Positions 10,921 to 47,124 of a stretch of DNA of 64,000 nt are shown in pieces (the stretch's first letter is position 1; every line of letters starts with the position of its first letter). The translations under genes and the position numbers were made by a program. Source of the stretch: an uncultured Methanosarcinales archaeon (GTDB lineage: Archaea; Nanobdellota; Nanobdellia; Woesearchaeales; CAIVOO01); the NCBI GenBank assembly GCA_964485195.1, contig CAZAIK010000001.1, forward strand, positions 62,001 to 126,000. The letters are read 5' to 3'. The notes beneath the pieces are model-generated. The model was not told the origin of the DNA and searched no databases. It was given only the letters and a program-made list of their open reading frames with translations.

Positions 10921-11054
10921 GGGCCCATAGCGCAGTCTGGTCTGTCGTGTTCCTTGATTGCAAGGATGCTCGCAGGGGCAATAGCGCACCTGGCTCTTAT
11001 TGCCTGACGGCAAAAGAAACCAGTAGGTCGGGGGTTCGAATCCCTCTGGGCCCA
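10921..11054 (+). tRNA. tRNA-Lys(CTT) with two introns (D-loop ~10942-10982; canonical 11000-11018)
   Basis: GGGCCCA/TGGGCCC acceptor, GCGC D stem, CT-CTT-A loop, GGTTCGAATCC. Confidence 0.88.
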
Positions 11055-27075: not shown

Positions 27076-27106
27076 GCAGAGAACCTGCTCCAGTTTTTGC
27101 AGGTAT

Positions 27107-27255
27107 GTAATGTCAAGTTAATTGTGGTGAATGCTGGCACTGCCTGGCGCAGTTGTCAATTAAAACTCCAGATTTTGAATAAATCGGGTTCAGAAGCGGT
27201 AAATTGGGCAGACGGAGCGCAGTGCCAGCGTAAAACACATAGCACTTGATATTGC
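27107..27255 (+). repeat. palindromic structured repeat, copy E1
   Basis: Nested inverted repeats 27107-27118/27244-27255 and 27131-27143/27219-27231; homologous to 42326-42418 and 46874-47078. Confidence 0.8.
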
Positions 27256-27302
27256 CAGGTATGGATAAGTTTTATAAACACTCTGCTTTTATTTTTGTTC
27301 AC

Positions 27303-27386
27303 GCCCCCGTGGCTTAGTAGTTATAGCGGCTGACTTGTACAGGTTAAGAAATCAGCAGGTCGTGGGTGCAACTCCCACCGGGGGCT
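27303..27386 (+). tRNA. tRNA-Thr(TGT) with 11-nt canonical intron (27340-27350)
   Basis: GCCCCCG/CGGGGGC acceptor, GCTGA/TCAGC anticodon stem; variant D/T loops. Confidence 0.88.
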
Positions 27387-41723: not shown

Positions 41724-42154
41724 TTTCAGATTCCGCATACATTTTATTGTAAGTGCGGGGAGCAGGATTTCCGAGAGAGCAGTTCTGGTAAACTGCTACA
41801 GCGTTCGAACCTGCGTAGGCACNNNNNNNNNNNNNNNNNNNNNNNNNNNNNNNNNNNNNNNNNNNNNNNNNNNNNNNNNNNNNNNNNNNNNNNNNNNNNN
41901 NNNNNNNNNNNNNNNNNNNNNNTTTCCGAGAGAGCAGTTCTGGTAAACTGCTACAGCGTTCGAACCTGCGTAGGCACCGCGCATAAGGGTTTCACCCTTA
42001 TCAACCTGAAAGTATGCATAAAGCATTCTGGCTGAAACTGGCTGTTATTTGAAGGTTTCAGATTCCGCATACATTTTATTGTAAGTGCGGGGAGCAGGAT
42101 TTCCGAGAGAGCAGTTCTGGTAAACTGCTACAGCGTTCGAACCTGCGTAGGCAC
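41724..42154 (-). repeat. 99-bp direct repeat of tRNA-Leu 3' part plus trailer (41724-41822, 42056-42154) enclosing a 78-bp unique segment; includes N gap
   Basis: Exact identity read directly; the 55 nt after the gap (41923-41977) duplicate the 55 nt before it. Confidence 0.85.
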
Positions 42155-42259
42155 TAAGCCAACAGATGGCTCACGTGTCACTTCATTGTCTCCAATACTG
42201 GAACCTCAGCACTCAACTCGTCTTGAGTCTGCCCCGTTTGGCCACTCCGGCATCCCCGC
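42086..42259 (-). tRNA. tRNA-Leu(CAA) with two introns (canonical 42168-42221; T-loop ~42100-42135)
   Basis: GCGGGGA/TCCCCGC acceptor, GCAGA-CT-CAA-G..A-TCTGT, long variable arm. Confidence 0.9.
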
Positions 42260-42325
42260 AATATAGATAGAGTAAAATAGCAATTTTTAAAGCTTGCCCT
42301 ACCATTACCAAAATAAGTTTGTGAC

Positions 42326-42418
42326 TGGTACTGCGCTACGTCCGCTTCCAAAACCGCTTCTGAACCCGAATTAGTCATAATCGCAATGATAATTGGATGA
42401 CTCCACCAGGCAGTACCA
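42326..42418 (-). repeat. palindromic structured repeat, copy E3
   Basis: TGGTACTGC/GCAGTACCA stem; 17-mer TCGGGTTCAGAAGCGGT identical to E1. Confidence 0.75.
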
Positions 42419-42476
42419 AAGGCAGTGCAACAAATTGCTAATTGCTTTTTATTAAAAAGATTTATAAAATAGAAAA

Positions 42477-46823: not shown

Positions 46824-46873
46824 CTTTTATTCAGAAAATGGCCGTGTTTTTTAAAAACCTTTCTGAAAAGAGG

Positions 46874-47078
46874 TTAAGTCAACTGTTATGTGTTCTGTGC
46901 TGGCACAAGAAAATGCCAACTAGCATTTTCTGTGCAGAAAATCCTAAAAAGGATTTTCTTGCACTGCCCAGCGCAGTCCTCAGATTTGCTGTCAGATGCC
47001 AAATAAACCGGACTAAACTCCTAATTCGCATCGGCACGGAGCGCGGTGCCAGCATTCACCACCCTTAACTTGACTTAA
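46874..47078. repeat. palindromic structured repeat, copy E2, with nested 54-bp insert
   Basis: TTAAGTCAA/TTGACTTAA and TGCTGGCAC/GTGCCAGCA inverted repeats; arms 27/29 and 23/29 identical to E1 arms. Confidence 0.8.
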
Positions 47079-47124
47079 GCCTGAAAAGGCAAGATTTTTA
47101 ATAATCAGGAACGCTGTGCAATAA

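Follow-up and report, generated by a model that had tools for sequence, protein, structure and literature searches.

A non-autonomous DNA transposon family, probably aimed at gene promoters, in a Woesearchaeota-type archaeal genome

The Sulfolobus SM/SMN elements are an example of prokaryotic MITEs. Terminal inverted repeats (TIRs) combined with 8-9-bp target-site duplications (TSDs) are the signature of a DDE transposase; HUH-mobilised elements have neither target-site duplications nor terminal inverted repeats. Insertion sequences of the IS1 family make a 9-bp duplication and carry the InsA zinc ribbon. Among the retrotransposons of compact eukaryotic genomes, the yeast Ty3 and Ty1 and the Dictyostelium TRE elements direct their insertion to polymerase III promoters. 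In its available text, a 2024 census of archaeal MITEs counts a Woesearchaea genome, with 105 MITEs per Mb, among those richest in such elements (PMC11602168). The available parts of two accounts of the IS6/IS26 family list two MITEs, MITEBth2 and MITEHarch3, of 227 and 336 bp (PMC7986276, PMC6807381), and the target duplication given there for IS6 is 8 bp (PMC7986276).

The window is the whole 64,000-nucleotide stretch of DNA analysed here. Three elements, E1, E2 and E3, were located at the positions given by an earlier sequence-only reading, and the extents of E2 and E3 were then adjusted (Table 1). The common core described in that reading is present in all three as GGCACTGCCTGGCGCAGT...ACGGAGCGCAGTGCCA in E1, GGTACTGCCTGGTGGAGT...ACGTAGCGCAGTACCA in E3 and TGCACTGCCCAGCGCAGT...ACGGAGCGCGGTGCCA in E2, and the 17-mer TCGGGTTCAGAAGCGGT is identical in E1 at 27184-27200 (+) and in E3 at 42353-42369 (-). 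As described, E1 has a stop codon on its upstream side (27075) and a tRNA gene of the same orientation on its downstream side, and a co-oriented tRNA-Leu(CAA) gene lies downstream of E3. ARAGORN, with or without its intron option, and Rfam both missed the latter gene. The E1 termini GTAATGTCAAGT.../...ACTTGATATTGC are diverged forms of the family ends. E3 retains an intact core with decayed terminal repeats and has no recognisable target duplication. E2 carries two additional hairpins in its left arm that recur on contigs C16 and C4, where the copies are partial, and this recurrence led to rejection of the extra ~65 bp as a nested foreign insertion. E2 lies between two gene starts: the ATG of a 226-aa ORF follows the start of the right-hand box by 30 nt, and the ATG of a divergent gene follows the start of the left-hand box by 34 nt.

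Table 1. Elements E1, E3 and E2 in the window, with their target-site duplications and neighbouring features
Feature	Position	Strand	Basis or remark
E1, MITE copy, 149 bp	27107..27255	+	nhmmer E 3.6e-29; family alignment; rod-like fold
E1 left TSD copy, 7-bp direct repeat CAGGTAT	27100..27106	.	read from sequence
E1 right TSD copy, CAGGTAT	27256..27262	.	read from sequence
TATA-like box TTTTATAAAC, tRNA gene promoter	27270..27279	+	starts 14-15 nt past E1 right end
Intron-containing tRNA gene downstream of E1	27303..27386	+	ARAGORN; Rfam tRNA model 56.3 bits
E3, older MITE copy	42306..42446 (approx.)	-	nhmmer E 9.9e-23; alignment
TATA-like box TTTAAAAA, tRNA-Leu promoter	42284..42291	-	14 nt past E3 right end
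tRNA-Leu(CAA), two introns (anticodon loop and T-loop)	42086..42259	-	read by eye
E2, long-variant MITE copy, 209 bp	46872..47080	+	nhmmer; alignment
E2 left TSD CTGAAAAGA	46863..46871	.	8/9 bases identical to right copy, with true left end
E2 right TSD CTGAAAAGG	47081..47089	.	read from sequence
TATA-like box TTTTTAAT	47095..47102	+	14 nt past E2 right end
TATA-like box of divergent gene	46850..46857	-	14 nt past E2 left end

The family had been thought to consist of three copies. The source habitat of the DNA is a microbial mat. A search of the window's 1.126-Mb Woesearchaeota-type genome with nhmmer identified 24 copies across 11 contigs at E<1e-5, plus a few extra fragments. Copies are ~149 bp long (133-155 bp; 209 bp for E2), and their alignment defines the terminal inverted repeats GGTTAAGTCAAGT (left) and ACTTGACTTAACC (right), which form a terminal helix that is 82.7% paired in 21 aligned copies. 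Exact 8-9-bp direct repeats surround 10 of the 24 copies, and shorter 5-6-bp repeats surround 3 more. Only chance ORFs of 41-50 aa overlap E1, and the family is short and non-coding. BLAST analysis of the full-length element across 60 relatives returned matches in its own genome and a terminal-repeat match in one other genome (G008), which is assigned to a related MITE. The E1 locus is free of the element in the same-genus genome G001 and the same-family genome G005, where the stop codon of the upstream gene directly precedes the orthologous TATA box and tRNA; no family copy was found in the same-genus genome. TIRs, a TSD of constant length, dispersed copies, ends in common with a transposase-encoding element and an empty site in a relative are the properties of a prokaryotic MITE. 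E1, E2 and E3 are read as copies of a non-autonomous DNA transposon of ~149 bp that derives from a clade of ~0.9-kb insertion sequences and is aimed at promoters, and the probability of this reading is put at roughly 0.78. That the family is a MITE is ordinary in itself; the unusual point is its landing site just upstream of gene promoters.

The TIRs and the 8-9-bp TSDs identify the family as a MITE rather than an RNA gene or a REP/PATE element. The sequence-only reading had raised the second of these possibilities, in which an HUH/Y1 transposase mobilises a REP/BIME-like or IS200/IS605-derived (PATE-like) element in single-stranded form. Its suggestion of mobility holds, and the single-stranded route does not. 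The elements are palindromic hairpins, intergenic and multicopy, which is the likeness to REP/BIME sequences with their RAYT transposases and to PATEs. Those depend on HUH enzymes and lack inverted termini and target duplications, whereas the copies here have both, and their ends match those of an IS6-type DDE element. The Y1_Tnp model (PF01797) had 0 matches in the genome and does match in control genomes. Mobilisation by an HUH enzyme thus has almost no probability.

The same ends bound insertion sequences of 889-941 bp in related genomes that encode a zinc-ribbon DDE transposase. This length range was measured on the six copies for which a single locus (L080, L082, L109, L110, L112 and L117) covers the two ends together with an exact 9-bp duplication, and exact 9-bp duplications occur at seven full-length insertion sequences. 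Woesearchaeota genomes in which the end motif occurs include G237, G310, G105, G136 and G026. The element at G083:C49:1-914 has the ends GGTTAAGTCAAC.../...GTTGACTTAACC and one ORF. The protein scores 62.1 bits against Pfam DDE_Tnp_IS240 (PF13610; cut-off 27), 29.1 bits against Zn_ribbon_InsA (PF03811) and 126.7 bits against NCBIfam transpos_IS6 (NF033587), barely above the cut-off of 125; its score of 61.3 bits against the IS1 model is below that model's cut-off of 100. Across 10 aligned relatives there is no variation at the DDE residues D127, D187 and E224 or at four cysteines. The 266-aa transposase combines a four-cysteine zinc ribbon at its N-terminus with a helix-turn-helix and a catalytic DDE domain, and it falls in the IS6 family. 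The parent passes the curated IS6/IS26 models and has the length (~700-900 bp), the single ORF and the short inverted repeats of that family (here ~13-14 bp, starting GG). Its assignment to IS6 is borderline, both by score (126.7 versus 125) and by a duplication of 9 bp rather than 8 bp. These data suggest that the MITE originated from a ~0.9-kb insertion-sequence clade of Woesearchaeota-type DPANN archaea. The transposase presumably binds the common ends GG(T/C)(T/A)AAGTCAA(G/C)T, followed a few bases on by GTGTTG, and a staggered 9-bp cut of the target would then yield the 8-9-bp duplications. No relative of the transposase was detected in viral contigs. One viral-contig match to the end pattern lies inside an apparent coding sequence and has no partner end, and it was taken as chance.

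No transposase was detected in the 99.5%-complete assembly that holds the window with PF13610, PF01609, PF12762, PF01797, PF00665 or NF033587. Two methods of searching this genome with the G083 transposase protein also returned none, the best tblastn match having E 0.38. Repeats are often lost from metagenome assemblies. The lack of a matching transposase in the assembly counts against demonstrated mobility of the copies in this genome; they are orphans, which either moved in the past or are mobilised by an enzyme that comes from outside the genome. The region is represented in two DNA runs of a single study; their contigs, which hide rare variants, have E2 and E3 in the arrangement of the window and include no empty-site allele. 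The joints reported for these runs are other family copies that cross-map. A look-up of sequencing runs for this organism listed none of RNA.

The distance from element ends to promoter boxes was measured with a TATA-like box defined by the simple regular expression TTT[AT][AT]A. A box starts 13-16 nt, and nearly always 14 nt, past an end in 18 of 24 copies, compared to 5.5% expected at crude intergenic positions (binomial P = 2e-18, approximate because gene calling for the null was crude). Boxes are faced by 12 right and 10 left ends, and by both ends in 4 copies. A long ORF starts 28-38 nt after the box in 14 of 21 cases, and in another two the box belongs to the tRNA genes next to E1 and E3. 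The logo of the target reads as 9 uninformative bases, then nAAnn, then TTTATAAA. The 6 copies that have no box at 13-16 nt are mostly decayed with uncertain ends. The same offset appears in a second genome, G358, which has 35 exact matches to the terminal repeat and a different MITE family of ~140 bp with the same left end: a box lies at 13-16 nt in 22 of 30 copies, and 27 of the 30 have a duplication, 11 of them exact. The full-length insertion sequences have a box at this distance in 9 of 17 cases; the other 8 lack one by the strict pattern, and some of these had poorly defined ends. A 19-bp spacing of divergent promoters was tried as a common architecture and rejected, since uninterrupted divergent box pairs peak at 8-9 bp rather than 19.

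These distances are consistent with insertion that is aimed at archaeal promoters, in which 5 bp would separate the duplicated 9 bp from the TATA box downstream, and the duplication would stop at the BRE's upstream edge. A duplication that ends 5 bp before the TATA box places the element end 14 bp from the box and leaves the promoter on the faced side intact. Insertion at promoter edges puts copies beside tRNA genes, at protein-gene starts and between divergent promoters. The adjacency to tRNA genes follows from insertion beside promoters and implies no link to tRNA biology. Active targeting, as opposed to survival of particular insertions, is what we infer from the offset, and the manner of recognition is inferred likewise. 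It is possible, and put forward tentatively, that a DPANN-specific IS6-type clade and its MITEs recognise the assembled promoter, either as the TBP/TFB-bound BRE-TATA or through the DNA shape imposed on it, and that the enzyme integrates precisely at the upstream border of the promoter, with a 9-bp stagger that ends 5 bp before the TATA box. A predicted complex of the transposase with TFB and TBP (genome G083), run without controls, gave scores of 0.00 and 0.00, with no verdict either way.

Survival could also produce a preferred distance. Random insertion of the same MITE, followed by persistence of only those copies that spare genes and promoters in a ~86-90% coding genome, would draw on the compactness of this genome (crude coding fraction 0.86) and on a stop-to-TATA gap at the E1 site of just 7-14 nt in relatives, which leaves few tolerated positions. 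The sharpness of the offset argues against it. Only 12% of non-coding positions 9-60 nt from a box fall at 13-16 nt, whereas 19 copies have a box at some distance between 9 and 40 nt, and in 18 of them it lies in that interval (P = 6e-16). At E1, ~24 more non-coding bases upstream of the duplicated site were left unused. A box at 14 nt on both sides occurs in 4 of 24 copies compared to 0.1% expected, and the 14-nt offset is repeated in the second genome with its different MITE family and at the full-length elements. Survival of random insertions is therefore an unlikely source of the spacing. It is very unlikely that the host has co-opted the copies as modules upstream of its promoters (insulators or sites for regulator binding, for instance) and retains them on that account. 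The fixed position relative to promoters and the conserved central segment would fit such a role, but the promoter is faced by either end, copies such as E3 and the partial ones decay, the family is missing from the same genus, and orthologous promoters in relatives work without the element. Targeted insertion of a MITE is the preferred reading of the spacing.

The inner part of the element forms a second stem. A paired change reported earlier, TGGCACTGC/GCAGTGCCA in E1 versus TGGTACTGC/GCAGTACCA in E3, is real and forms part of a family-wide covariation. Alignment of 21 copies bore this out: the inner stem is 94.5% paired with two-sided changes in 6 of 10 pairs, and its covariation score was reached by 0 of 500 shuffles. 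The palindromic, intergenic and multicopy nature of the element was confirmed as well. Covariation of the same pattern is expected from a DNA palindrome that is kept symmetric for transposition. The E1 fold has a predicted energy of -56.9 kcal/mol on the + strand (z -5.6) and -42.8 on the - strand, so the strand asymmetry noted for E1 is correct; it does not extend to the family, where the two strands differ by -0.4 kcal/mol on average and the + strand is the favoured one in 11 of 24 copies. As anticipated, no Rfam family matches the element at gathering score over the whole window or at E up to 10 around E1 and E3, where the search returned solely the tRNA and chance-level matches.

The sequence-only reading had offered a multicopy non-coding RNA as one explanation. 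Genes for small structured RNAs, or an RNA element active on co-transcription, would account for the strong E1 fold, the covarying inner stem and the conserved central non-palindromic segment (e.g. AAATAA, TCGGGTTCAGAAGCG and ACGGAGCGCAG). Of the properties of structured RNAs, the family shows covariation; it matches no curated model, including any in Rfam, and its structure is not confined to one strand, given the lack of strand preference among the 24 copies. Either end of a copy faces the neighbouring promoter (12 right, 10 left), and several copies sit between divergent promoters, beyond any expected transcript. The TSDs and the inverted ends common to a transposase-bearing element show how the copies arose, and absence from a same-genus genome is unlike a housekeeping RNA. 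An RNA family is accordingly highly improbable, and the inner stem of the MITE is probably not an RNA. The long covarying stem is specific to the MITE; the parent element lacks it. The most likely reason for its retention is that a fold-back or cruciform would join both ends for the transposase, or that repair homogenises the arms. This role would fit the covariation, which is also the product expected of selection on a single-stranded fold.

In two genomes, for two MITE families and for autonomous elements, the position of insertion with respect to the TATA box is fixed to one or two bases. Literature searches turned up no account of an archaeal transposon that directs its insertion to promoters. 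If the aim is active, the family would be an uncomplicated natural model in which to ask how DDE transposases read promoter complexes. In that case it would also account for the survival of mobile DNA in genomes of extreme compactness, and its copies would mark, at no cost, the active promoters of uncultivated archaea. If promoters are recognised as proposed, a transposon could multiply in a nearly all-coding genome with genes and promoters unbroken, which would be the equivalent in prokaryotes of the 'safe haven' strategy of Ty3/TFIIIB.

The family resembles prokaryotic MITEs in being short, non-coding and multicopy, with TIRs, TSDs and a transposase acting in trans. The available text of the archaeal census does not describe families, and in that text 'TATA' is absent and 'promoter' occurs twice; here the parent is identified and a 14-bp TATA offset is found (PMC11602168). 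Elements of IS1 share with the parent the N-terminal InsA-type zinc ribbon and 9-bp duplications. They differ in that the parent scores 61.3 bits against a cut-off of 100, ranks below the IS6 model and has a single ORF with no frameshift. The likeness to IS6/IS26 lies in a DDE transposase that passes the models, short IRs starting GG, a single ORF in ~0.9 kb and non-autonomous derivatives. The differences, as far as the available parts of the IS6/IS26 accounts extend, are several. The parent duplicates 9 bp and not 8 bp (PMC7986276), and its zinc ribbon is on a short 266-aa protein, whereas IS6 zinc fingers are reported only in long clostridial clades (PMC7986276, PMC6807381). The host is a DPANN archaeon, and the archaeal IS6 hosts listed are Halobacteria, Thermococcales, Methanococcales and Sulfolobales (PMC7986276, PMC6807381). 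MITEs are abundant here (24 copies, and 35 terminal-repeat matches in G358) compared to the two listed for IS6, and they are promoter-proximal, whereas IS6 targeting is described only beside another IS26 copy, along with hybrid promoters in bacteria (PMC7986276, PMC6807381). A DPANN clade with a short zinc-ribbon transposase and a 9-bp duplication is thus outside the archaeal IS6 clades listed in the available text of these sources (PMC7986276, PMC6807381). The comparison with Ty3, Ty1 and TRE is one of analogy. The enzymes are unrelated and the element class is different, so the resemblance would be in strategy only; the outcome appears alike, in that insertion keeps a constant, short spacing to a promoter that TBP and a TFIIB-family factor occupy, sparing the genes of a dense genome.

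The sequence-only reading described E1, E2 and E3, three palindromic intergenic elements, as an undescribed three-copy family representing either a new multicopy ncRNA or a REP/PATE-like element mobilized as single-stranded DNA. Re-reading of the sequence confirmed their positions, their shared core and the 17-mer TCGGGTTCAGAAGCGGT common to E1 and E3. BLAST followed by iterated nhmmer seeded with E1 showed that the three are members of a larger family of 24 copies at E < 1e-5, plus weaker fragments, on 11 contigs of the host assembly (1,126,147 bases, 32 contigs, scored 99.5% complete). Alignment of the copies with their flanks gave a typical length of 149 bp for most of them, a left end of GGTTAAGTCAA(G/C)T and a right end of A(C/G)TTGACTTAACC. 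Exact 8- or 9-bp direct repeats surround 10 of the 24 copies (for example, AGCAATAG, GTTTAACAC, TAATCAAGG and GGGTTTGGC) and 5-6-bp repeats surround three more; the other 11 have no detectable flanking repeat, and most of these are decayed or mis-trimmed. At the boundaries first drawn for it, E1 has CAGGTAT at either side, the true left end of E2 at 46872 reveals the flanking repeats CTGAAAAGA and CTGAAAAGG, and the ends of E3 are decayed. The MITE of a DDE transposase is by definition a small non-autonomous transposon that lacks coding capacity, has inverted termini and constant-length target-site duplications, and is dispersed in many copies. The window elements are a MITE family of this type because they have each of these properties. 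No match to the IS6 DDE domain, DDE_Tnp_1, the IS1595 DDE domain, rve, Y1_Tnp or the NCBIfam IS6 model was found in the window's genome. Mobilization by an HUH enzyme is rejected, since inverted termini and constant-length duplications are the signature of a DDE transposase and the genome has no Y1_Tnp match.

The long E2-type left arm, with its two extra small hairpins, recurs in partial copies at C16:3040-3150 and C4:14640-14720 of the window's genome, and a TATA-like box lies ~14-15 nt outside the left end of each. At C8:31600-31850, a strong family match adjoins a weak one of opposite orientation, perhaps as a head-to-head pair, perhaps as a copy that has been rearranged. E1 and E3 lie beside co-oriented tRNA genes, as the sequence-only reading had noted. 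Two introns, of ~55 and ~34 nt, interrupt the anticodon loop and the T-loop, respectively, of the tRNA-Leu(CAA) gene, which was undetected by ARAGORN, even with its intron option, and by the Rfam tRNA model. A near-exact second copy of its 3' part (variable arm, T-arm and T-loop intron) lies ~100 nt downstream and abuts a run of N; it could be a repeat from an integrated element or an assembly effect. Elsewhere in the window, a tRNA match barely clears the gathering score of 29 at 29.3 bits; its anticodon loop holds a 21-nt insertion, and the alignment contains no D-arm residues.

Positions of the palindromic elements and neighboring features in the window
Feature	Position	Strand	Remark
E1	27107-27255	+	between a stop codon (ORF ends 27075) and the intron-containing tRNA
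17-mer in E1	27184-27200	+	
Intron-containing tRNA	27303-27386	+	co-oriented with E1
E2	46872-47080	+	
E3	~42306-42446	-	upstream of tRNA-Leu(CAA)
17-mer in E3	42353-42369	-	
tRNA-Leu(CAA)	42086-42259	-	read by eye; downstream of E3
Second copy of tRNA-Leu 3' part	41922-41985	-	
Borderline tRNA match	10975-11054	+	

BLAST did not find the whole element in 60 relatives, among them the one further species of the genus; their single match was a 24-base end in G008, which belongs to a related 160-bp MITE with the 9-bp duplication AATTATACA. Searched with up to one mismatch, the 13-base end motif far exceeds a reversed-pattern control in genomes scattered through the order. Counts on the two strands versus the control were 35+37 versus 1 in G358, 9+6 versus 0 in G237, 5+7 versus 1 in G105, 6+5 versus 0 in G310, 6+4 versus 1 in G136 and 11+13 versus 1 in the window's genome.

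The motif lies at contig ends in another relative, G083, where contig C49 starts with it. C49:1-914 holds an entire insertion sequence, bounded by GGTTAAGTCAACTT... and ...GTGTTGACTTAACC, whose single ORF encodes 266 aa. The protein scores above the cut-offs of Pfam DDE_Tnp_IS240 (62.1 bits, cut-off 27), Pfam Zn_ribbon_InsA (29.1 bits, cut-off 26.1) and NCBIfam transpos_IS6 (126.7 bits, cut-off 125), and below that of NCBIfam IS1 (61.3 bits, cut-off 100). The insertion sequence occupies several G083 contig ends (C15, C23, C41, C49 and C62), so it is multicopy there and breaks that assembly; the end of C41 and the start of C49 join across one copy via a shared 9-bp duplication. A few genomes of the order encode relatives of the transposase with 49-68% identity. 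So do 12 public MAG contigs, five of them titled 'uncultured Methanosarcinales archaeon' and the others Woesearchaeota or Nanoarchaeota. The tally of relatives in the order, like the end-motif counts, includes genomes marked unpublished, on which no claim depends. The next closest proteins (26-32% identity), mostly from Rhizobiales and other Alphaproteobacteria, are taken to be bacterial IS6 elements. D127, D187, E224 and four cysteines are invariant among ten aligned transposases. Exact 9-bp duplications flank seven full-length copies (GCTAGTAAC, CTTTTTCAG, CATTATTAG, CTGACTAAA, CTCTTTACC, CCCTGAGCC and CTATTCTTT), and the MITE and full-length ends share the terminal 13 bases plus a GTGTTG motif a few bases inward. 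A G083-type transposase was not found in the window's genome (best tblastn E = 0.38).

The covarying stem proposed from three copies was borne out in 21. Their terminal helix is 82.7% paired and their inner helix 94.5% paired, with changes on both sides in 6 of the 10 inner pairs. Inner-stem variants include GGTGCTGC/GCAGCACC, GGCACTGC/GCAGTGCC and GGTACTGC/GCAGTACC, and one copy has a CCAG/CTGG swap. The observed covariation was reached by 0 of 500 shuffles, and pairing was lost when the partners were slid. E1 folds into a long rod at -56.9 kcal/mol (z -5.6) on the plus strand versus -42.8 kcal/mol on the minus strand; the strand-specific fold described earlier for E1 does not extend to the family, which has no strand preference. 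The full-length elements have no such inner stem, and their inverted repeats reach just ~13-14 bp. Together with the lack of strand preference, this suggests a role for the stem at the DNA rather than the RNA level, where fold-back may join the two ends or repair may homogenize both arms. A new RNA family is rejected on the MITE hallmarks and the absence of strand preference. No Rfam model matched the elements, whether the full window was scanned at the gathering score or the surroundings of E1 and E3 at E up to 10.

In 18 of the 24 copies, the distance from an element end to the start of a TATA-like box (TTT[AT][AT]A) outside it is 13-16 nt, and almost always 14. Right ends face a box 12 times and left ends 10 times, with four copies two-sided; the true left end of E2 adds a fifth. 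Chance at crude intergenic positions is 5.5% for either side and 0.1% for both, which gives a binomial P of ~2e-18 for a simple box pattern and crude gene calls. Of 21 boxes, 14 are followed by a long ORF that begins 28-38 nt later, two belong to the tRNA genes beside E1 and E3, and one more has no ORF. An ORF at this distance fits archaeal genes whose leaders are short or absent. Judged from these ORFs and tRNA genes, the boxes are real promoters. Read from the element end, the site profile has 9 near-uninformative bases, nAAnn and then TTTATAAA; the 9 bases are the duplicated target and nAAnn is the BRE. Uninterrupted divergent box pairs in the window's genome peak at 8-9 bp and not at the implied 19 bp, and two-sided sites as a common local architecture were rejected on this basis. 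The 8-9-bp peak suggests that this genome favors promoters arranged back to back.

The offset recurs outside the window's genome. The G008 copy and two ends in G238 have it. Among 17 distinct full-length elements, the strict pattern places a box at this offset in 9; some more TATA-like variants were recognized by eye, and some of the ends are not well defined. G358 carries a different ~140-bp MITE family (loci L048-L077) that has only the left end and the inner GGTGCTGG/CCAGCACC stem in common with the window's family. Duplications flank 27 of its 30 fetched copies, 11 of them exact 9-mers, and a box lies at 13-16 nt in 22 of 30, or 24 by a looser pattern. This 0.9-Mb genome holds at least 35 exact end matches and no transposase relative at E <= 1e-10; one copy is inserted directly beside another at L052/L053 (C2:7821 and 7974).

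The offset might instead mark the survivors of random insertion into a compact genome. This explanation is improbable, weakened by three observations. Among non-coding positions 9-60 nt from a box, 12% lie at 13-16 nt, versus 18 of the 19 copies having any box 9-40 nt away (P ~6e-16). Non-coding bases beside E1 were left unused, and the identical offset is found in independent genomes and families. The upstream gene and downstream tRNA of E1 are both present in G001 (same genus) and G005 (same family), where the orthologous site lacks the element and the stop codon lies 14 and 7 bases, respectively, from the TATA box. These empty sites are evidence that E1 arrived by insertion. Contigs of two DNA runs showed no empty-site allele, and the copies in the window's genome would have moved either in the past or with an enzyme from another source. 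Promoter-directed insertion is the most likely mechanism; in it, the transposase would bind both ends and cut with a 9-bp stagger whose promoter-side edge lies 5 bp upstream of the TATA box. The duplicated 9 bp would end before the BRE and TATA, so the promoter would stay intact on either side, and a two-fold symmetric transposition complex would allow either end to face it. Recognition could occur by direct reading of BRE/TATA, through the bend made by TBP/TFB or by tethering to TBP/TFB.

Full-text literature searches, which did not cover ISfinder, returned nothing relevant on promoter- or TATA-directed insertion in archaea, and the words 'promoter' and 'target' are absent from the text of a 2026 survey of archaeal insertion sequences by term search. 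The portion considered of a 2024 MITE census (PMC11602168) counts a Woesearchaea genome as one of the most MITE-dense in archaea. The passages considered of two IS6 reviews (PMC7986276 and PMC6807381) describe 700-890-bp elements with only two MITEs, zinc fingers only in long clostridial transposases, archaeal members in Halobacteria, Thermococcales, Methanococcales and Sulfolobales, targeting only beside another IS26 copy, and hybrid promoters in bacteria. They give 8-bp duplications for the IS6 family, whereas the full-length elements here (889-941 bp) have 9 bp. The three elements are thus neither a new RNA nor HUH-mobilized; they belong to a new MITE family within a DPANN-specific clade of IS6-type transposons. 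Its marks are a 9-bp duplication and a striking fixed-distance association with promoters.
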